Part shown: piece after piece, positions 3,714-55,048 of the stretch | Numbering within the stretch: the first letter of the stretch is position 1 | Layout: every line of letters begins with the position of its first letter | Assembly (NCBI GenBank): GCA_964455545.1 | Contig: CAYVWQ010000005.1 | Location: 24,005-88,004 of the forward strand | DNA length: 64,000 bases | Reading direction: 5' to 3' | Source: an uncultured Thermoleophilaceae bacterium | GTDB taxonomy: Bacteria > Actinomycetota > Thermoleophilia > Solirubrobacterales > JACPNS01 | Position numbers and translations under genes: made by a program | The notes under the pieces: generated by a model | Database searches by the model: none | What the model was told of the DNA's origin: nothing | Seen by the model: the letters and a program-made list of their open reading frames with translations, nothing else

Positions 3714-5102
3714 CTACTTGCCGGAATTGCCGCGGCCGTTGGCGGCGCCGCCGCCCGAGGCGTTGTCGCCGCCCGAGCCGTTGCCGCCGCCGGAGCTGTT
3801 GCCGCCGGATCCGCCCGATTGATCGCCGCCGGATGAGTTCTGGCCGGCGGATTCGCTGCGGCCGGATGAGTTCGAACCCGACGAACTGCCGCCGTTTGAC
3901 CTGGTCGAGGCGCTCTGAGACTTCGAGGACGAATTGCCGCGGCCGTTGCCCTTCGCGGCGGCGCGGCGCTCGGCGGCGGCCTTCTTCTTGGCGGCAGCCC
4001 TGCGCTTTGCCTTGGCGGCCTTGCGCTTGGCTTTGGCCTTCGCCTTCGCGCGCTTTTCCGCCGCTCGTGCGCGAGCTCGGGCTTTGAGCGCCTCTGGATT
4101 GCCGGCGAGCCCTTCGGCAGCGGCCGACTCGGCGGACTTTCCAGCGCTTGAACCGTTCACCGAAGCCGTCTTCTCGGCGGCGGGCTCACCGCTCTTCCCG
4201 ACGATCTCCTCGCCGGCGACGACACCTCCGGTGCCGACGGCCGCGACGACCAGGACCGTGGCGGCGACCTTTCCGGCTACCGCTACGACGCCAGCTCCGC
4301 CGGCCGTCGCCGCGACTCCACCGGCAGCGGTGCCGCCTGCAACTGCGCCTCCGGCAGCGGCTCCTGCGCCCGCGCTTGCGGCTGCTCCCGTCGCAGCTGC
4401 GGCGGATGCCTTGCCGGCCCCGACCCATGTGATCGCGGTGATCGGCGCGGCGGCGGCGAGCTTTCGCTTCAGCTGCTTGCCGCGGATCCCGTTCGCGTCG
4501 GCCGCCGTCGTGACGGTCGCGCGCCCTCGCTTGATCAACTGGCGCGCACTTTCGGGTGTCGTCTCGAGCGTGTCGGCGATCTCGTCGACCGACAGGCCAC
4601 CCAGCTCGCGCATGACCAGGGCCTCGCGCTGCCGTTCGGGGAGTGAATTCATCGCCGTGACGAGCCACGCGAGTTCGGCGCGGCGATCGACCACCGACTG
4701 GAAGCTGACGACGGTCGCCGGCTCGTCCCGCTCGGTCGCGTCATCAAGCGACAAAGTTCGTTGGCGCATTCCGCGGATGTGGTCAAAGGTGTGGTTGCGG
4801 GCGATCCTGAACAGCCACGCCTTGAAGGAGCCATCGTCGTGCCGCGCGCCGAGATTGGCGTATGCCTTCTGGAAGATTTCCTGCGTCAGATCCTCGGCGT
4901 CGTCGACGTTGGCGCCGCGTCCGAGCAGGTGATAGACGAACGCGAAGATGTTCTGGCGGTATCGCGCGTGCAGGGTCGCGAATGCGTCCTCGTTGCCGCG
5001 GGCCGCGAGAGAGCAGAGCACCCGGTCCGGTTGCACGGACAGCATGCGGTTTGCGACCGCTGAGTGCAGCGGACGCGCGTCTGTTCTGGGTGAAGCTTCC
5101 AT
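3714..5102 (-). CDS. ECF-type sigma-70 family factor with fused C-terminal membrane anchor and low-complexity tail (sigma paralog 1)
   Basis: 462 aa. N-terminal ~200 aa has sigma region 2 (FAFVYHLLGRGANVDDAEDLTQEIFQKAY, WLFRIARNHTFDHIR) and region 4 (LPERQREALVMRELGGLSVDEIADTL...ARQLIKRGR). A Gly/Ala-rich hydrophobic stretch follows (VAATVLVVAAVGTGGVVAG), then a Lys/Ala-rich and Ser/Gly/Asn-rich tail. Confidence 0.85.
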   Translation of the reverse strand: MEASPRTDARPLHSAVANRMLSVQPDRVLCSLAARGNEDAFATLHARYRQNIFAFVYHLLGRGANVDDAEDLTQEIFQKAYANLGARHDDGSFKAWLFRIARNHTFDHIRGMRQRTLSLDDATERDEPATVVSFQSVVDRRAELAWLVTAMNSLPERQREALVMRELGGLSVDEIADTLETTPESARQLIKRGRATVTTAADANGIRGKQLKRKLAAAAPITAITWVGAGKASAAAATGAAASAGAGAAAGGAVAGGTAAGGVAATAGGAGVVAVAGKVAATVLVVAAVGTGGVVAGEEIVGKSGEPAAEKTASVNGSSAGKSAESAAAEGLAGNPEALKARARARAAEKRAKAKAKAKRKAAKAKRRAAAKKKAAAERRAAAKGNGRGNSSSKSQSASTRSNGGSSSGSNSSGRSESAGQNSSGGDQSGGSGGNSSGGGNGSGGDNASGGGAANGRGNSGK

Positions 5103-5171
5103 CCCTTATCTACTAACAAGACGTATCGCCACATGTTTTGTGTCACTTGAAAAATCCGGCCTGAGACGAAA

Positions 5172-5197
5172 AACGAGAACTGACTGCGACATGTTCC
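5172..5197 (-). promoter_or_regulatory. candidate ECF-type promoter GGAAC-N17-CGTT upstream of sigma paralog 1
   Basis: Minus strand reads GGAACatgtcgcagtcagttctCGTT. The -35 is at 5197-5193 and the -10 at 5175-5172, about 70 nt upstream of the ATG at 5102. Matches the AAC/CGT hallmark of ECF promoters. Confidence 0.4.
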
Positions 5198-5221
5198 GGC
5201 GCGGCGACCGTCTGTAACTGC

Positions 5222-5830
5222 ATGAACCTCAAGGCCAAGAAAATCACGATTCTGCTCACTCTCGTAATGCTTGTGTTCGCGGTGGTCGCGGCGCAGGCGT
5301 CCGCGGCTCCGAAGGACCGCAACAAGAACGGCATTCCCGACGCCTGGGAGAAGGCGCACGGAATTTCGCTCAAGAAGGACCGGGGCAACCGTGACGCGGA
5401 CGGAGACGGCGCGCGCAACCGCTGCGAGTACCAGGCCAAGACTGACCCGAACAACGCCGACAGCGACGCCGACCTGATCCCTGACGGCGACGAGGACACG
5501 GACGGAGACGGCGCCACCAACCGCGCCGAGTCAAATCTGCGCTCGAACTGCGGCAGGGCGAACAGCCACCTGCAGATCCGTCGCGCGACCGTGACGTCAT
5601 TCGCAGAAGGCGTCCTGACTCTGACGGTCCGTGGTGGCGGCACCGTGACCGCTCCGGTCTCGAGTTCGCTCAAGTGCGCCGTGAAGAAGTCAGGCGCTTC
5701 AAAAACGTCGAACGGCAAGGCCGACAGCAAAACGGCCGCATGCATCACCGCTGACCTGGTCAGCGGAACCGCCGTTCACAACGCCCGAACGAAGTCGGGC
5801 AAGTTCGCCGCAATCACTCTGGTCAAGTAG
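5222..5830 (+). CDS. secreted DxDxDG (thrombospondin type-3-like) calcium-binding repeat protein (paralog 1)
   Basis: 202 aa. Signal peptide MNLKAKKITILLTLVMLVFAVVAAQASA. Repeats DADGDGARNRCE, DSDADLIPDGDE and DTDGDGATNRAE. Four Cys conserved with the 7375-8076 paralog. Confidence 0.75.
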   Translation: MNLKAKKITILLTLVMLVFAVVAAQASAAPKDRNKNGIPDAWEKAHGISLKKDRGNRDADGDGARNRCEYQAKTDPNNADSDADLIPDGDEDTDGDGATNRAESNLRSNCGRANSHLQIRRATVTSFAEGVLTLTVRGGGTVTAPVSSSLKCAVKKSGASKTSNGKADSKTAACITADLVSGTAVHNARTKSGKFAAITLVK

Positions 5831-5874
5831 CGACGAGCAAGGGGACCTCGTCCACCCCGGCGAGGTCACGAGTG

Positions 5875-5908
5875 GGCGACGGCCGAGACCCGGAGCTCGG
5901 CCGTCGCC
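5875..5908. terminator. perfect 13-bp-stem hairpin between convergent genes (probable bidirectional terminator)
   Basis: GGCGACGGCCGAG acccggag CTCGGCCGTCGCC. Lies between the stop at 5830 (+) and the stop at 5918 (-). A second 7-bp hairpin (GACCTCG/CGAGGTC) sits at 5844-5867. No strong T-tract. Confidence 0.5.
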
Positions 5909-5917
5909 GCACGGATT

Positions 5918-7228
5918 TTAAGGGCCCGAGTCAACCCCCCCGGGCCCCGATTTGGTCCCAACACGACCGGCTCCGGAATCGGGCGAGCCCGATTCCGAGC
6001 CGGCGTCGCCGGTCTCCGAGCCCGAGCCGGACCCAGAACCACTGTGAGACCCGTCGTCTCGCGGTCGAGGCCCGCCATCTCGTGAACCCGAGCGTTCCGA
6101 TCCTTCGCGTTCGAACTGATCATCGCCTCTGAAGGTCGACCCGCGACGGCCGCCGCGGTCGTCCTGGCCCTCGGCCTCGGTCTCGCCGCCGCGACCGCGG
6201 CGGCCCTCGCTCGCCGCTCCCGATCCGCTGCCGCGATCTGGCCGCTTTGCGTCCTCGCCTTTCCCGCGCCGACTGCCGCCGGTGCGGTCGGCCACGTCGC
6301 GGATGACGGACTCGGCGGTCGTGGTGCCGGCGGGAACACGCGCGATCGGAGAGCCGGCCCTGTCCTGCGCGGCGGCAACGTCGGCGCTGTCGCTGGCAGG
6401 CGGCTTGGTGCGCTCGTGTTCGACGACGGCGGTCCCCCCTCCGACTGCGGCAACGGTCAGAAAAGTCGCCGCGACCTTCGCGAACGCCGCGCCGCCGCCG
6501 GCGGCAGCGCTCGCGGTCGCCGCGCCGCCGGTGAAAGTCATTCCGATACCGGCCGCGAGCGGCAGAACTGGCGCCGCCATCGCGAGATCGCGTCCCAGAT
6601 GCTTCTCGCGATAGCCATCTGCGGCCGCCGCTTCGGCGACCGAGCTGCGTCCGCGATTGATCAGCTTCTTCGTTGCCGAAACCGTGGTGTCGAGTTCGGC
6701 AGCGATCTCACGGTGTGAAAGCCCGCCCAACTCTCGCAGCAGCAGCGCTTCGCGCTGACGGTGCGGGAGCTCCGAGACCGTCGTGACAAGCCACGCGAGC
6801 TCGGCGCGCTGCTCGGCGCGGTCGTCCGTAGCGGCGCGGTGGTCGACGGCTTCGGTGGACATCTCTGCCTCGGCGTCGAGTGAACCGACCGGCCTGCGCG
6901 CGCGCATCACGTCGAACGTTCGATTGCGGGCGATCGCGAAGATCCAGTGCTTGAAGCTGCCCTCGAAGCCGCGTTCGCGAATCGCCGCGAACCCCTTCGT
7001 GAATGCTTCTTGTGCGATGTCTTCCGCGTCCTCGGAGCTCGCTCCCCTGCCCAGCAGGTGATAGACGAAGGCGAAGACGGGCTGGCGATAGCGCTCGTAG
7101 AGAACGTCAAAAGCGCTCGGGTTTCCGCGCGAGGCGAGGCGGCACAGCACCGGGTCAGGCTGTACGCGCAGGAAGCGGCTCGCCGCGGATCCTGCCGCGG
7201 GCGAGCTGTATGTGGGTGAAGCCTCCAA
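5918..7228 (-). CDS. ECF-type sigma-70 family factor with fused C-terminal membrane anchor and low-complexity tail (sigma paralog 2)
   Basis: The ORF is open to a TTG at 7282. The TTG at 7228 gives an N-terminus (L/M)EASPTYSS that aligns with MEASPRTD of paralog 1, is preceded by GGAG, and lies downstream of a promoter-like motif. Sigma regions 2 and 4 are conserved (FAFVYHLLGRGASSEDAEDIAQEAF; LPHRQREALLLRELGGLSHREIAAEL), followed by a hydrophobic Ala/Gly stretch and a Gly/Arg/Asp/Ser-rich tail. Confidence 0.8.
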   Translation of the reverse strand: MEASPTYSSPAAGSAASRFLRVQPDPVLCRLASRGNPSAFDVLYERYRQPVFAFVYHLLGRGASSEDAEDIAQEAFTKGFAAIRERGFEGSFKHWIFAIARNRTFDVMRARRPVGSLDAEAEMSTEAVDHRAATDDRAEQRAELAWLVTTVSELPHRQREALLLRELGGLSHREIAAELDTTVSATKKLINRGRSSVAEAAAADGYREKHLGRDLAMAAPVLPLAAGIGMTFTGGAATASAAAGGGAAFAKVAATFLTVAAVGGGTAVVEHERTKPPASDSADVAAAQDRAGSPIARVPAGTTTAESVIRDVADRTGGSRRGKGEDAKRPDRGSGSGAASEGRRGRGGETEAEGQDDRGGRRGSTFRGDDQFEREGSERSGSRDGGPRPRDDGSHSGSGSGSGSETGDAGSESGSPDSGAGRVGTKSGPGGVDSGP

Positions 7229-7250
7229 GAAGTCGCTCTCCAGACATTCA

Positions 7251-7276
7251 AGACGTTTCGACGGCGAGAAAGTCCC
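7251..7276 (-). promoter_or_regulatory. candidate ECF-like promoter GGGAC-N16-CGTCT upstream of sigma paralog 2
   Basis: Minus strand reads GGGACtttctcgccgtcgaaaCGTCT (7276->7251), 23 nt upstream of the TTG at 7228. Confidence 0.4.
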
Positions 7277-7314
7277 ACACAACCCTGAGAATTCCCTGAG
7301 ATGCGTCCAGCCGC

Positions 7315-7340
7315 GGGACCTTCGGGGCGCGAAGTCGTCT
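7315..7340 (+). promoter_or_regulatory. candidate ECF-like promoter GGGAC-N16-CGTCT upstream of secreted DxDxDG protein paralog 2
   Basis: Plus strand reads GGGACcttcggggcgcgaagtCGTCT. An AGGAG Shine-Dalgarno follows at 7364-7368 and the ATG at 7375. Same motif and spacing as the minus-strand site at 7276-7251. Confidence 0.4.
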
Positions 7341-7374
7341 TTGCATCTGACAGTCCACCGAACAGGAGATTCAA

Positions 7375-8076
7375 ATGCGACACAAGATCAAGTTTCAGTT
7401 GCTGGCGATCCTCGCTTTGGCCCTCGCCGGGATGGCGATCGGGCTCAGCCAGGCGTCGGCGCACGGAGGTGGCCACGGCGGCCGCATCGTCGACAGCGAC
7501 GGTGACGGCGCCAGCGACAAGTGCGAGGCCCGTGCAGGCACGTCGTCGAGCGACACTGACAGCGACGACAACGGCGTCGTCGACGGCCTCGAGGACACCG
7601 ACGGAGACGGCGCAAACAACGCGGCCGAGTCGGTCCTGCGCACCAACTGCAACCGCGCGAACACGCGCTGGAAGCGAATTCGCCGCGCCGAGGTCGAGAG
7701 CTACACGGACGGCGTGCTGACACTTTCGATCGGCAAGAACGGCGGCCTGCTCTCGGCACCGGTCAGCTCCCGCGTGATCTGCGAGATCGACGACTCAAGC
7801 GACAGCAGTGACGACGACTCCACCGCCAGCATCGCCCGACACGGCGAAGACGAGCCCGGAGATGACCGCGGCGGTGAACGTGGCGGCGACAGCGGTGGCG
7901 ACGACGGTGGCCAGCGCGGCGACCGCCCGTTCGGGCGCTTCGACGGCGACGACGAGGACGACACCGTTGCGTGCGTCACAGGGGACATCGTTGCCGGCGC
8001 CGAAGTCCGCTCCGCGAAGATCAAGAGCGGCAAGTTCGTCCGCATTCACCTCGCGGACCCCGAAGACTCCGAGTAG
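7375..8076 (+). CDS. secreted DxDxDG (thrombospondin type-3-like) calcium-binding repeat protein (paralog 2)
   Basis: 233 aa. Signal peptide MRHKIKFQLLAILALALAGMAIGLSQASA. Repeats DSDGDGASDKCE, DTDSDDNGVVDGLE and DTDGDGANNAAE. C-terminal domain is collinear with paralog 1 (GVLTL...APVSS...C...AC.T.D.V...KSGKF). Confidence 0.75.
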   Translation: MRHKIKFQLLAILALALAGMAIGLSQASAHGGGHGGRIVDSDGDGASDKCEARAGTSSSDTDSDDNGVVDGLEDTDGDGANNAAESVLRTNCNRANTRWKRIRRAEVESYTDGVLTLSIGKNGGLLSAPVSSRVICEIDDSSDSSDDDSTASIARHGEDEPGDDRGGERGGDSGGDDGGQRGDRPFGRFDGDDEDDTVACVTGDIVAGAEVRSAKIKSGKFVRIHLADPEDSE

Positions 8077-8100
8077 AAGCGATCGGATCCCGAGCAGAAA

Positions 8101-8134
8101 ATCCCCCGGTCCGCGAGGTCCGGGGGATTTTTTG
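8101..8134 (+). terminator. rho-independent terminator
   Basis: ATCCCCCGG tccgcgaggt CCGGGGGAT followed by TTTTTT, 25 nt after the stop at 8076. Confidence 0.75.
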
Positions 8135-8145
8135 CGGGTCAGAGT

Positions 8146-8187
8146 TTGTAACACCTTGTTACAATACTTTGTGACATCGTGTTACAA
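8146..8187. promoter_or_regulatory. two tandem 19-bp palindromic operator-like sites upstream of ndh
   Basis: TTGTAACA-cct-TGTTACAA (8146-8164, perfect 8-3-8) and TTGTGACA-tcg-TGTTACAA (8169-8187, one mismatch). Centres are 23 bp apart. AT-rich island immediately upstream of the start at 8201. Confidence 0.45.
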
Positions 8188-8200
8188 GCGCTTTGGGTAG

Positions 8201-9577
8201 GTGATGAAGATGGCTTTCAATGTGGTGATCGTCGGCGGCGGATTCGGCGGCTTCAACGCCGCGCGCAGGATCGAGAAGAGCGTCTCCCCCGACGCGGTCA
8301 AGACGATCCTCGTCTCTGAGCAGAACTTCCTTCTCTACACACCCTTCCTTCCCGAAGCCGCTGCCGGAACGCTCGAACCGCGTCACGTCGTCACCCCGCT
8401 GCGCGAGCTGCTCGACAACACCAGGCTGCAGCTCGGCTCGATGACCGGGCTCGACCGTGCGCGAAATGTCGTCACGATCCGCAACGCCGAAGGCGACCCG
8501 CAGGAAATCCGCTACGACCGCCTGGTGCTCGCTCCCGGGTCGATCTCCCGAACACTGCCGATCCCCGGTCTCGCCGAGCATGGCGCCCAGTTCAAGAGCC
8601 TCGCTGACGCGATCTGGCTACGCAACCACGTGATCCGCTCGCTTGAGCTGGCCGAGACGGTCAACGACCGTACGCGGCTCGACGAGCTGCTGACCTTCGC
8701 ATTCGTCGGCGGTGGCTACGCCGGACTTGAAGCGCTGGCCGAACTCCAGGACTTCGCCGTGGACGCGCTCGAGATGTACCCGGCAGCGCGCGAGCACGGG
8801 ATGCGCTGGATGCTCATCGAGGCCGGTCCCCGCGTGCTCAACGAGATCGACGCCGGCCTCGCCGACTACACCGTGCGCCAGTTGCGCAAGCGCGGGATCG
8901 ACATCCGCCTCGAGACGCAGCTGAAAGAGGTGACCGACCACGACATCCTGCTCTCGACCGGGGAACGTATTCCCACCCGCACGCTCGTCTGGACGGCGGG
9001 AGTCACGCCGAATCCACTCGTCCGCGAACTCGGACTTCCGCTGACTGACAGCGGGCGGATCGAGGTCGACGCGAACATGCAGGTTGCCGGCGCCGCCGAC
9101 ATCTGGGCGATCGGCGATGCCGCCGCCGTTCCGAACCCTTTGAACCCGGAGCGGCCGAGCCCGCCGACGGCTCAGCAGGCACGGCGCCAGGGCATCGCAG
9201 TGGGCCGCAACGTCGCCGCGTCGCTCGGGCGAGGGACGACGAGGCCCTACGCGTACAAGGACCGCGGCTCGTTCGTGAACATCGGCCGCTACAAGGCCGT
9301 CGCGATGGCCGGCCGGATAAAGCTGCGCGGCCCGCTCGCATGGTGGGCGGCGCGCACCTACCACGTCAGCCAGGTCCCAGGTCTGAGGCGCAAGTTCCGC
9401 GCGATCGTCGACTGGACGGTCAGCCTGCCGTTTTCGCGCGACGTCGCCGAAGTCGGCTCGATCGGCCACCCGCGCGGGCTGGAGGATCTGCCTCCTGCTG
9501 CTTCAGGAAACGCGACGGCGGCTCGTACTTCTGCAGCGGACCCGGGAGACGGTGCCGCTGGCGCTCCCAGATCCTGA
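8201..9577 (+). CDS. ndh: type II NADH:quinone oxidoreductase (NDH-2)
   Basis: 458 aa. Two dinucleotide-binding motifs (VVIVGGGFGG; FVGGGYAGLE) and GDAAAVPN. The start may be the GTG at 8201 or a nearby ATG at 8204 or 8210. Confidence 0.9.
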   Translation: MMKMAFNVVIVGGGFGGFNAARRIEKSVSPDAVKTILVSEQNFLLYTPFLPEAAAGTLEPRHVVTPLRELLDNTRLQLGSMTGLDRARNVVTIRNAEGDPQEIRYDRLVLAPGSISRTLPIPGLAEHGAQFKSLADAIWLRNHVIRSLELAETVNDRTRLDELLTFAFVGGGYAGLEALAELQDFAVDALEMYPAAREHGMRWMLIEAGPRVLNEIDAGLADYTVRQLRKRGIDIRLETQLKEVTDHDILLSTGERIPTRTLVWTAGVTPNPLVRELGLPLTDSGRIEVDANMQVAGAADIWAIGDAAAVPNPLNPERPSPPTAQQARRQGIAVGRNVAASLGRGTTRPYAYKDRGSFVNIGRYKAVAMAGRIKLRGPLAWWAARTYHVSQVPGLRRKFRAIVDWTVSLPFSRDVAEVGSIGHPRGLEDLPPAASGNATAARTSAADPGDGAAGAPRS

Positions 9578-10917: not shown

Positions 10918-11174
10918 GTCTCAACCTGATCTGCCCCGGCGCGGAGACCGGCAAACAAAAAACTTTCCGCGGCAGCGTGATTTTTGCGTCGCACCTGCGT
11001 TCAAACACATGCACGCGGATAACACGTGTGCGCCGGATTCAATCGGCGGCGCGGCGGTGGGCCGTCGCGGCAGACCTAGGTCTGTGGCTCGCCGCCCGCC
11101 CGGTCCGGCGCAGATCAGGGGCAGAACCGGTGCGTCGCCCCCTCCTACCCCCCCTGGGGGCGGCGCCGGTTCAC

Positions 11175-12134
11175 TCAGAGCTCGGCGCGGCGTCGCAGGA
11201 TCTCCCTCGCGGCGCTTCCCGGGTCGAGCTTCCGTTCTACGACTTCGTCGAGCAACGCCTGGACAGCGGCGTCCTCGGCGATCGACTGCTCCAGCTCCGA
11301 ACGGAGGCTGATCGTGGCGAGCTCCAGCACTTCGTTGCGAAGATTGCGGCGGCGTCGCTCAGCGAGCGTGCCCTGCTCGGTGATGTGGGCACGATGTGCG
11401 TCGATCGCGTCGATCAGCTTGTCGATTCCGATGTCGTGCGCTGCCTGGGTCTGAATCACCGGCGGCGTCCAACCGTCGTCGGCGTGACCGAGCGCGAGCA
11501 CGCCCTTGATCTCGCGCACGAGTGTGTCCGTCATCGGGTGGTCGGCCTTGTTGACGACGATCACGTCGGGTATCTCCATCACACCGGCCTTCAGCGCCTG
11601 CACCGAGTCGCCACTTCCCGGCATCAGCGCGAGCACAATCGTGTCGGCGTGGTCGATCACGTCAATCTCGGCCTGCCCGACGCCGACCGTTTCGATCAGG
11701 ACGTTGTCGCGGCCGGCGGCGTCCATCAGCAGGGCGGCCTGCAGGGTCGCCTCCGAGAGGCCTCCGAGCGCGCCACGGTTGGCCATTGAACGGATGAACA
11801 CGCCCGGGTCGAGGAAATGCTCGGTCAGCCGGATGCGATCGCCGAGCAGCGCGCCTTGCGTGAACGGACTCGAAGGATCGATACTGAGCACTGCGATCGT
11901 CTCGTCCCGGGCCCGCAGGTGCTTTGCCATCACTCCGATCAGCGTCGACTTGCCGACCCCGGGAGGTCCCGTGAGACCGACCATCTTCGCCCTCCCGGTC
12001 TGCGGGTAGACCTCTTTGACCAGCTCCCAGCCGGTGGGGTCGTTGTTCTCGACGAGTGAGATCGCTCGCGCGAGTGCACGCTTGTCGCCTTCGACTAGGC
12101 GGCCTGCGAGGTCCTGTGCGGTCGAGGTGGCCAT
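11175..12134 (-). CDS. meaB: methylmalonyl-CoA mutase-associated GTPase MeaB/ArgK
   Basis: 319 aa. P-loop GPPGVGKST, DVIVVNKADH (NKxD) and overall ArgK/MeaB layout. Confidence 0.9.
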   Translation of the reverse strand: MATSTAQDLAGRLVEGDKRALARAISLVENNDPTGWELVKEVYPQTGRAKMVGLTGPPGVGKSTLIGVMAKHLRARDETIAVLSIDPSSPFTQGALLGDRIRLTEHFLDPGVFIRSMANRGALGGLSEATLQAALLMDAAGRDNVLIETVGVGQAEIDVIDHADTIVLALMPGSGDSVQALKAGVMEIPDVIVVNKADHPMTDTLVREIKGVLALGHADDGWTPPVIQTQAAHDIGIDKLIDAIDAHRAHITEQGTLAERRRRNLRNEVLELATISLRSELEQSIAEDAAVQALLDEVVERKLDPGSAAREILRRRAEL

Positions 12135-38658: not shown

Positions 38659-40720
38659 CTGCCGGCGGGCGCGCGCCCTCCTCTTCGAGCCAGCCGACCA
38701 GCACCTCGTGCATGTGGCCGGCGCCGATTATCTCGTCGGGTGCCTGCGACCACTCGGACGGAACGAATGCGAACGGCTTGTTCTGGGTGCCGCCGAGCCC
38801 CCCGTGGGACCCGACGAGCTCCTCGAACGCGGCAACCTCGCCCGATTCTTCGTCGTATATCGACACGACGTAGATGTCCGGCGCGTCGGTGAATCCGGCG
38901 GCGCGCGCGAGGTGATGCGGCGCGTTCTTGCCGTAGTGCTTCAGCGGGTCGCTCCCCTCGATCTCGCCCGAGCCGAGATGGTGCACACCGTCGGCCCCGA
39001 TCGCGATCGGCCCCTCCGGCGTCTGAACGCAGATGAATCCCACACCGCTGTGCGTCGCGAGCGTCGTGATCAGTCCCGGGAACAGCCGCTCGATCCCGGC
39101 GCGGTCGAGGCGCTCGCCGTGCTCGGGGAAGTAAACGAGCCCGAGGTTGCCGGACGCGAGCACGATCACGTCGGGCTTGTCGCCCGCTTCCTCAATCTTC
39201 GACTCGGTCTCCTCGTTCTCGGCCTCGGGGCCCAGCCGCACCTCGTCGCCGCCGGGGTTGCGGCGCTCGACCTGGCGCCGCACCGCGGTGGCGGTCGCAC
39301 CCTCGGAAGAGGCGACCTGCGCGACGGCGGCGCCGATATTGCCCCACGCCTCGTCGGCGGATTCAACCGTCGCGACATCGTGGTCGGCGGCGATCGTCCG
39401 TTTGACGACGTCTTCAAGCGTCTCGCCGAAGCGCTGCTTGAAGGTCGCGCCCTGACTCTGGCCGTGGTCGGAGAGCACGACGAACTTGTAGGGGCGGGGA
39501 GCTGCCGCCGCGATTCGCTCGAGGCGGCCGAACTGCTGGTCGAGGCGGCGCAGCACGTCGAGCGCGTCGCGCCGTTCGATCCCCGAATGGTGTGCGACCT
39601 CGTCGTAACCGACGAACGTTGCGTAGCTCACCGGCACCCCCTCGAACATGTCGCCGACCAGCGAGAAGATGTTGAAGTCACGCATGATCACAGTCATGCC
39701 GCAGCGCAGCAGCGGATAGATGCCTCCGCGCGAGACGCGCGGCCGGATGTCGAGTTGGCGTTGCCGCCGCGCCTCGATCTTCTCGATGATGATGTCCCAG
39801 GCGCTCAGCGTGAGCGTGCGCGAGGGGTTGAACGGATCGGCGAAATAGGCGTAGAAGTCGCGCGAATAGAGCTTGTCGCGCACGCGACTGAGCGTCAGCA
39901 GAGAACGCGGTGCGTCGCCGGACATCAGGTTGCCGCGGCTGGTGCCACCGTACGCGAGCAGGCCCTTGCCGGTCGAGAGCCGCTTCTCGACCTCTTCGAC
40001 GTCCTTCGCGCTCGACGAGGTCATCAGCCTGCCCGTCGACCGCTCGTACCACCGGAAGGCCGGAATGTTCTCGTTGCTGCCGAGCAACAGCCCCGCCTGC
40101 GAAGCGCTCGTCTGCGAGGAGAGGTCGCACTCCCAGTTGATGATGCGGTGGCTGCCTTCGTTTAGCCAGCGGGCCATCGTCGGCATGTGGCCGTTGGTGA
40201 TCGCGCGGCGCATCACCGGCTCGGCGAGCCCGTCGATCTCGAGGAAGAACACCCCCGGCACGTCGGAGTGCTGAATCTCGCGACCCTGGCGTTTGACCAC
40301 GCGACGGATCGAGCGCAACACCACGCGTTCGTAGTACCAATCGCGCTCTCCGACTCCGAAAATCGACGTCACGAGGATGTTGCCGATCGTCAGCAGAATC
40401 ACCACGACGACTCCCGCGCCGGCGGTGACCCGCACTCCGTCGACGAACTCGCTCGCCATCGCGATCACGATCCCGGCCATCAGCACCGACCCGAGGCCGG
40501 CGGTGAAGACCGCGAAGCGGAGCGCCAGTGAAATCACGGACGGCCAGATCAAAGAGTTGAAGACCGAGATCGCCAGCGCGATGCCGATCGCGGCGCCGAA
40601 GTTCGGGACGTCGAAGCCCGGCATGGTCTGCGCCAGCAGCCAGACGATCAGGGCGTTGAACAGAATCAGCGCGGACGCGCGCCAGATGCTGCTCCAGACC
40701 GAACGCGCTGCGCCGCTCAA
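38618..40720 (-). CDS. membrane-anchored alkaline-phosphatase-superfamily (nucleotide pyrophosphatase/phosphodiesterase-like) protein with N-terminal holin-like 4-TM domain
   Basis: 700 aa. N-terminal hydrophobic domain (PGFDVPNFGAAIGIALAISVFNSLIWP...), then FFLEIDGLAEPV...WECDLSSQTSASQAGLL and VVLSDHGQS, typical of type I phosphodiesterase/AP family. TTG start overlaps the upstream stop. Confidence 0.75.
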   Translation of the reverse strand: MSGAARSVWSSIWRASALILFNALIVWLLAQTMPGFDVPNFGAAIGIALAISVFNSLIWPSVISLALRFAVFTAGLGSVLMAGIVIAMASEFVDGVRVTAGAGVVVVILLTIGNILVTSIFGVGERDWYYERVVLRSIRRVVKRQGREIQHSDVPGVFFLEIDGLAEPVMRRAITNGHMPTMARWLNEGSHRIINWECDLSSQTSASQAGLLLGSNENIPAFRWYERSTGRLMTSSSAKDVEEVEKRLSTGKGLLAYGGTSRGNLMSGDAPRSLLTLSRVRDKLYSRDFYAYFADPFNPSRTLTLSAWDIIIEKIEARRQRQLDIRPRVSRGGIYPLLRCGMTVIMRDFNIFSLVGDMFEGVPVSYATFVGYDEVAHHSGIERRDALDVLRRLDQQFGRLERIAAAAPRPYKFVVLSDHGQSQGATFKQRFGETLEDVVKRTIAADHDVATVESADEAWGNIGAAVAQVASSEGATATAVRRQVERRNPGGDEVRLGPEAENEETESKIEEAGDKPDVIVLASGNLGLVYFPEHGERLDRAGIERLFPGLITTLATHSGVGFICVQTPEGPIAIGADGVHHLGSGEIEGSDPLKHYGKNAPHHLARAAGFTDAPDIYVVSIYDEESGEVAAFEELVGSHGGLGGTQNKPFAFVPSEWSQAPDEIIGAGHMHEVLVGWLEEEGARPPAGDADAGDRIDIDE

Positions 40721-54974: not shown

Positions 54975-55048
<74 letters not shown>

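Follow-up and report, generated by a model that had tools for sequence, protein, structure and literature searches.

A probable pair of back-to-back ECF promoters between a sigma factor gene and its divergent secreted partner in an uncultured Thermoleophilaceae bacterium

The gap at 7228–7375, between the gene of ECF sigma paralog 2 and the divergent gene of a secreted protein (partner 2), probably holds two independent ECF promoters placed back to back, most likely both bound by the paralog 2 holoenzyme. Coordinates refer to the window, the whole 64-kb stretch of DNA that was analysed (66.6% G+C). In the model that we favour, region 4.2 of paralog 2 would read the −35 box GGGAC(TTT) and region 2 the −10 box CGTC. 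Transcription from the sigma-side promoter would start at about 7244 (minus strand) and give a leader of about 15 nt with a GGAG before TTG 7228, and an active sigma transcribing its own gene would form a positive autoregulatory loop. From the partner promoter, transcription would start at about 7347 (plus strand), pass AGGAG and ATG 7375, and cover a monocistronic TSP3 gene up to the strong terminator at 8102–8133. No separate anti-sigma gene accompanies the sigma, whose hydrophobic extension probably inserts into the membrane; its release would proceed by proteolysis, as in the sigma/anti-sigma fusions that are the nearest described parallel. The tandem pair at 3714–5830 appears to be wired alike, but its −35 box is GACAC and its recognition helix has changed to match. 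We infer the identity of the holoenzyme, the transcription start positions and the positive feedback. Strong comparative evidence indicates that this uncharacterised clade has a conventional pair of autoregulated ECF promoters, with a textbook mechanism, and the analysis provides a comparatively supported promoter model for these ECF sigmas from the uncultured, poorly studied Solirubrobacterales/Thermoleophilaceae. The locus is laid out in Table 1.

Table 1 Features of the sigma/partner locus, in window coordinates
Feature	Position	Strand	Remarks
ECF sigma paralog 1, 462 aa	3714..5102	minus	
Pair-1 sigma-side promoter GACAC-N16-CGTCT	5119..5144	minus	context GTGACAC...GGCGATACGTCT
Pair-1 partner-side promoter GACAT-N16-CGTCT	5188..5213	plus	−10 box ends 8 nt before ATG 5222
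Partner 1, 202 aa, TSP3 repeats	5222..5830	plus	divergent from sigma paralog 1
ECF sigma paralog 2, 436 aa	5918..7228	minus	TTG start at 7226-7228; ORF list gave 5918-7282
GGAG ribosome-binding site	7238..7241	minus	9 nt before TTG 7228; read from sequence
GGGAC-N16-CGTCT copy, sigma side	7276->7251	minus	GGGACTTTCTCGCCGTCGAAACGTCT; spacer TTTCTCGCCGTCGAAA
Sigma-side −10 element CGTCT	7251..7255	minus	16 nt 3' of −35 box
Sigma-side −35 element	7269..7276 (GGGAC 7276-7272)	minus	extended to GGGACTTT
Direct repeat, 11-bp period, TCTCAGGGAAT-TCTCAG	7285..7301	minus	between −35 boxes; 8 nt upstream of sigma-side −35 box
GGGAC-N16-CGTCT copy, partner side	7315-7340	plus	GGGACCTTCGGGGCGCGAAGTCGTCT; spacer CTTCGGGGCGCGAAGT
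Partner-side −35 element	7315..7322 (GGGAC 7315-7319, plus CTT)	plus	partner-side consensus GCGGGACTTT
Partner-side −10 element CGTCT	7336..7340	plus	
AGGAG ribosome-binding site	7364..7368	plus	6 nt before ATG 7375; read from sequence
Partner 2, secreted protein	7375..8076	plus	divergent from paralog 2; ATG 7375
Intrinsic terminator of partner-2 unit	8102..8133	plus	TCCCCCGG-loop-CCGGGGGA then TTTTTT
ECF sigma paralog 3, 409 aa	9688..10917	minus	no divergent partner; upstream motif AAAGATCACGC

The sequence-only reading had described one copy of GGGAC-N16-CGTCT on each strand with identical 16-nt spacing, and an AGGAG and ATG 7375 downstream of the plus-strand copy; both descriptions hold. 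The window contains exactly two matches to the motif, compared with a mean of 0.38 in dinucleotide shuffles, and both lie within the 146-nt gap. Applying the usual ECF promoter offset of 6–8 nt, we predict transcription starts at about 7243–7245 on the sigma side (minus) and at about 7346–7348 on the partner side (plus). A simple consensus scan found no sigma-70-type promoter in 4900–8300, and an Rfam search of the region found no RNA family.

Could the two matches be a functionless coincidence? Two or more matches anywhere in the window did appear in 5 of 100 whole-window dinucleotide shuffles, but here they share one gap and lie on opposite strands. Because the motif had been defined after the sequence was viewed, we used a post-hoc control in which the 146-nt gap was shuffled and any 5-N16-5 word present on both strands was counted; such a shared word arose in 0.4% of shuffles (post hoc p ~0.004), or 1.4% when spacings of 15–19 were allowed. 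Conservation leaves coincidence with next to no probability. Related loci were gathered from species-representative genomes (L001–L004 being useful) and by exact look-up of homologous proteins; a scan of genome contigs with the sigma alignment gave four family loci among the 79 loci listed, generic ECF patterns having filled the listing. The locus is syntenic, with genes for MeaB, an NDH-2-type oxidoreductase, one to three sigma/partner modules, a peptidase M17 and a thiolase. Among 16 Thermoleophilia metagenome loci, which are phylogenetically related (L001 is close to L002, and L003, L082 and L086 are close) and nonetheless differ in their spacers, GG(G/A)AC-N16/17-CGTC is found in 15 in the 200 nt that precede the start of the sig2-type sigma, and all 16 carry it on the opposite strand, aimed at the partner. 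Shuffled regions yield it at 0.1–0.6% per strand per locus and at 0–0.03% on both strands, which effectively refutes chance. The sole sigma-side miss, L084, has GGGAC-N16-GGTCA.

In an alignment of 23 sig2-type sites the information lies mainly in the promoter elements, which have the ECF architecture proposed by the sequence-only reading: the core positions of GGGAC (1.7–2.0 bits), the TTT extension (1.3–2.0 bits) and CGTCT (CGTC, 1.7–2.0 bits) together span 1.3–2.0 bits, and the spacer 0–0.7 bits. The consensus is (G/t)GGGACTTTt-N12-CGTCT(t/a), usually preceded by GC on the partner side and usually followed by (A/T)TA on the sigma side. The two boxes are separated by 16 nt in 13 of the 16 sigma-side sites and in most partner-side sites, and by 17 nt in a few sites, on the sigma side in L088. 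The −35 core in the window is GGGAC, with GAC where ECF promoters canonically have AAC, and most members share this GAC; the canonical GGAAC is found in L087, L088, L090 and L091b, and GACAC in the paralog-1 type.

The mirrored copies are a bipartite 10-nt word repeated in perfect inversion, and their −35 boxes lie exactly 38 nt apart in 9 of 13 loci, as might be expected of half-sites in one palindromic operator for a dimeric transcription factor. We consider an operator very unlikely, since that distance is 32, 39, 48 or 60 nt in other loci, 2 nt in L091b and about 3 to 43 nt in the paralog-1-type pairs, and yet the spacing inside each half stays at 16 nt. Each half also has −35/−10 geometry, with the sigma-side half 7–24 nt before the start codon, and L086, from which the partner-1 gene has been lost, keeps a sigma-side copy alone. 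Because both the spacers and the distance between the boxes vary, two separate promoters are the better description.

The TCTCAG direct repeat (TCTCAG-N5-TCTCAG) between the promoters occurs once in the window. Of the 9 loci with a 38-nt gap, 8 have it at the same position, and orthologs at a greater distance lack it. It may be a transcription factor site, for example for an OmpR-type regulator, and its conservation suggests that a further regulator acts at the locus.

The plus-strand element has also to be weighed as a terminator or attenuator stem-loop, CTTCG-GGGCG-CGAAG followed by TCGTCTTT, with its likeness to a promoter being coincidental. This is hardly credible: a terminator scan does list 7320–7334 (plus), but the stem is only 5 bp long, the T-tract is weak, and five such sites were found where 3.2 were expected. 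No ortholog keeps the spacer hairpin or shows compensatory changes, whereas the flanking GGGAC and CGTCT are kept.

The start codon of paralog 2 bears directly on the sigma-side promoter, which overlaps the reading frame as called in the ORF list. When 32 family members are aligned, MEASP... opens nearly every full-length sequence, and initiation at TTG 7228 gives LEASPTY... (the L would be read as M), matching the MEASP... of paralog 1. Two database homologs with longer calls show ‘GTF...RL’ upstream, which is the translation of GGGACTTT...CGTCT. Across orthologs the sigma start codon follows the −10 box at 7, 13, 15, 16, 22 or 24 nt, and at about 95 nt in L089, so the distance varies without keeping the frame and the motif region is taken to be non-coding. 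Together with the MEASP termini of the homologs, this argues that the 7282 start is wrong and, judged by these alignments, the true start is TTG 7228. The sequence-only reading had rejected the longer start and noted the resemblance of the shorter N-terminus to paralog 1, and was right on both counts; its placement of the motif 23 nt upstream of the TTG stands as to position, and the interval that separates the −10 box from the TTG comes to 22 nt, a difference in counting.

The peptide M-E-A-S-P is near-invariant in all sig1- and sig2-type sigmas (7228->7214 and 5102->5088 in the window). Its codons vary synonymously, which indicates that selection acts on the peptide, and it might be a processing or degradation signal.

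Judged by its domain content, paralog 2 is an ECF (group 4) member of the sigma-70 family. It matches Sigma70_r2 (42.3 bits), Sigma70_r4_2 (50.9 bits), Sigma70_ECF (28.7 bits) and TIGR02937 (79.7 bits against a cut-off of 42.9). There is no match to Sigma70_r1 or Sigma70_r3, so that regions 1.1 and 3 are absent, and the sigma2–sigma4 linker is only about 30 aa long. The sigma2 plus sigma4 core spans residues 1 to about 205, and an AF2 model is confident to about residue 220 and of low confidence in the later hydrophobic segments. In the sigma paralogs the core is followed by a conserved short helix (LGRDLA.AAP), then by Gly/Ala-rich hydrophobic segments, one or two in number, and finally by a C-terminal tail of low complexity of about 150–200 aa (about 170 aa in paralog 2). 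The segments at about 215–236 and 250–272 reach Kyte-Doolittle 19-residue means of 1.6–2.2 in most homologs. Residues 200–436 of paralog 2 contain no cysteine, and hence no zinc-finger or ZAS motif; nor does the extension show a conserved His/Cys zinc-finger/ZAS column in the 32-homolog alignment. Neither a domain nor a carbohydrate-binding module came up when the sigma C-terminal extensions were searched against Pfam. Homologs of the sigma come only from Solirubrobacterales or Thermoleophilaceae metagenome genomes, whose annotation calls them no more than sigma factor or hypothetical protein.

Which sigma reads the boxes can be approached through the way in which the −35 box covaries with region 4.2 of the sigma beside it. 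GGGAC goes with T(T/S)VSA(T/A)KKLI.R(G/A)R in 11 of 11 loci, GGAAC with TTV(P/S)(S/G)VKQLI.RAR in L087 and L088, and GACAC with ..(K/R)QL(I/V)K(R/H)GR in 7 of 7 loci (K.AR in L085). The helix of paralog 2 reads ..TVSATKKLINRGR (..ATKKLI..). In a prospective check, three more sigmas were picked by their helix, with GGGAC predicted for P0073 and GGAAC for P0081, and no prediction made for P0060. P0073 (..AVKKLV..) has GGGAC on both sides and P0081 (..VKQLINRAR) has GGAAC on the sigma side, each as predicted. P0060 (..TKQLIKRGR) has GACAC-N16-GGTCT, the box of other sigmas with a QLIKRGR helix, and a second family sigma in its locus (..VKQLINRAR) has GGAAC. By pairwise alignment, K187 and K188 of the window sigma correspond to R171 and S172 of Escherichia coli sigma-E, which we take to lie in the DNA-contacting helix of the region 4/−35 DNA structure. 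This covariation is indirect evidence that each sigma reads its own neighbouring promoters, which is probable.

The −10 box CGTC is common to the sig1 and sig2 types, which differ in the −35 box, and the −10-reading loop IARN(R/H)TFD is shared by all types and by all three paralogs. Some cross-recognition between paralogs 1 and 2 is possible, given the shared CGTC and a score of 17 bits for the sig2 sigma-side site with the sig1 PWM. From the divergence of box and helix, there is probably little crosstalk between the duplicated modules. Rhodius et al. (2013, Mol Syst Biol) reportedly obtained orthogonal ECF sigma/promoter pairs in which sigma-specific −35/−10 combinations insulate paralogs. 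Like those pairs, GGGAC and GACAC here go with matching region 4.2 changes; the present case differs in being a natural tandem duplication within one locus, in which only the −35 has diverged and the −10 has been retained. The three natural −35 variants with their matched helices offer a small existing series with which the specificity of ECF promoters could be studied or engineered.

Shared loop and shared −10 box also leave room for the boxes to be genuine ECF promoters read by another sigma (paralog 1, paralog 3 or an unlinked factor), with paralog 2 as a target and not its own activator; overlapping promoter recognition by ECF sigmas is documented in Bacillus and Streptomyces (PMC6767563). 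We regard such an arrangement as unlikely, because helix and neighbouring −35 type go together in 20 loci and again in four further sigmas from three later loci, and the single-sigma genomes L083, L087, L088, L089 and L090 still carry both promoters. Control by paralog 2 itself fits the general ECF pattern of autoregulation and co-located targets (PMC7826278).

The local regulon of paralog 2 appears to be small. A PWM built from the 23 sites found only two sites in the window, at 33.6 and 24.1 bits; the next best site scored 9.4 bits, and mononucleotide shuffles of the window reach 7–18 bits with this matrix. The PWM found no sig2-type site of at least 15 bits outside the sigma/partner gaps in 258 kb of family loci, a scan that is partly circular because the training sites are the recovered matches. 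Because it detects no other sites, the regulon within about 10 kb on each side would consist of the sigma and its partner. A scan of metagenome contigs with GGGACTTTT-N12-CGTCT gave 120 single, unrelated matches, none of which adjoins a sigma or partner homolog or lies near any ECF gene at E <= 1e-3, and which are uninformative for the regulon. A PWM1 match at 39370–39403 (14.2 bits) was dismissed as it lies inside long ORFs.

Partner 2 begins with a signal peptide of the Sec type and contains calcium-binding repeats of the bacterial TSP3 kind; an acidic, RG-rich insert divides its small beta domain, in which cysteines are conserved. Partner 1 likewise has a signal peptide, TSP3 repeats and a small beta domain with conserved cysteines. 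The partner family comprises 54 clusters, all of them hypothetical proteins of Solirubrobacterales or Thermoleophilaceae MAGs. The terminator scan lists the minus-strand version of the hairpin at 8102–8133 that closes the partner-2 unit. A sigma with a probable membrane anchor next to a secreted calcium-binding protein makes the module a candidate self-contained envelope-sensing circuit.

The best PDB sequence matches of paralog 2 are E. coli sigma-E (RpoE) and Pseudomonas AlgU (8z6g/6in7, E = 6e-18; 1or7/6jbq, about 2e-17), at only about 67–68 bits and low identity. The −35 box of E. coli sigma-E is GGAACTT, which resembles the GGAACTTTT of the distant orthologs L087, L088 and L090. RpoE and AlgU differ in having a −10 box that is TCAAA-like, not CGTCT, and a separate anti-sigma, RseA or MucA, in place of a fused extension.

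Among actinobacterial ECF sigmas, the likeness is to sigma-E of Streptomyces coelicolor, with a −35 of GGGAAC/GGCAAC, a −10 of CGTCT and a spacing of about 16–17 nt; many of its S1-mapped or ChIP-supported targets carry GGGAAC-N17-CGTCT (PMC6767563). Here the −35 is GGGAC followed by TTT, one A fewer, and CGTCT comes after 16 nt. The regulon of sigma-E is large, about 90 promoters, and sigma-E is under CseABC control, whereas only two local targets of paralog 2 are detectable and the protein has a hydrophobic extension of its own at the C-terminus. Fusions of an ECF sigma to a regulatory extension that spans the membrane are known in IutY (ECF243) and in SCO4117 with ECF48, ECF52 and ECF53 (PMC8999054, PMC5826349), and such sigma/anti-sigma fusions are thought to be released by proteolysis (PMC8999054). 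Paralog 2 resembles IutY and ECF48/52/53 in combining an ECF core with a C-terminal extension that has hydrophobic, possibly TM, segments and in having no separate anti-sigma gene. Its extension differs from those of ECF48/52/53 in having a low-complexity tail and no cysteine, zinc-finger/ZAS feature, Pfam domain or carbohydrate-binding module, and because the zinc-finger/ZAS feature is absent paralog 2 cannot be placed in ECF48, ECF52 or ECF53.

A more far-reaching picture is tentative, and we think it somewhat doubtful. These sigmas would form a Thermoleophilia-restricted, undescribed group of membrane-anchored ‘one-component’ ECF factors with a minimal regulon of the sigma itself and a divergent secreted TSP3 protein, the latter a possible extracytoplasmic partner or ligand of the sigma tail. 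Tandem duplicates would be orthogonal via the −35 alone (GGGAC, GGAAC, GACAC) together with one or two helix substitutions, for example K188 to Q at the position of sigma-E S172, and a further factor would act on TCTCAG-N5-TCTCAG. Apart from the promoter model and the correction of the start codon from 7282 to 7228, the −35 variant series, the minimal two-gene module and the conserved direct repeat between the promoters are the more interesting secondary aspects of the locus.

The promoters of pair 1 follow the same plan. The sigma-side box GACAC-N16-CGTC has GACAC in six of seven sig1-type loci and GACAA in L084, is also found upstream of sig1-type partners where these are present, and shows 1.6–2.0 bits for CGTC in 12 sig1-type sites. 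Given the 8 nt between −10 box and ATG, the partner-1 mRNA is probably leaderless or nearly so. Most sig1-type sigma genes have only 11–16 nt from −10 box to ATG, and in several loci GAAGG directly abuts the ATG. In L082, an intact sig1-type reverse promoter, GACAC-N16-CGTCA (11598–11631, minus), has no partner-1 gene downstream and is directed at the sig2 gene, entering it from the 3' end; this promoter may be a relic or may act in antisense. The single sigma of L089 has its GGGAC promoter (~3935–3970) about 95 nt upstream of the start and, nearer the gene, a GCCGATACGTAT box resembling the sig1-type −10 context GGCGATACGTC; this arrangement may be a remnant of module fusion or loss. The tails of the sigmas parallel the inserts of their partners in composition: a strongly basic character (net +15 to +22) in sig1-type tails goes with Lys-rich inserts in partner 1, and sig2-type tails and partner-2 inserts are both Asp/Glu/Arg/Gly-rich.

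Paralog 3 is evidently wired differently from paralogs 1 and 2. Its upstream region lacks a −10 box of the CGTC type as well as a divergent partner gene and gave no match in Rfam, and at about 10960–11040 it holds two blocks conserved in five loci, AAAGATCACGC and, farther upstream, GCACACGT..CCGTGTACAT.

Elsewhere in the window, a tRNA gene at 54975–55048 (plus, 65.5 bits) is the only Rfam match. Between the partner-2 terminator and the NDH-2-like gene at 8201–9577, the palindromic words TTGTAACA, TTGTTACAA, TTGTGACA and TGTTACAA cluster at 8140–8195; TTGTWACAA is expected 0.01 times in the window. The cluster looks like a candidate operator, possibly Rex-like, and the same palindromic words precede the orthologous NDH-2 gene in L091.
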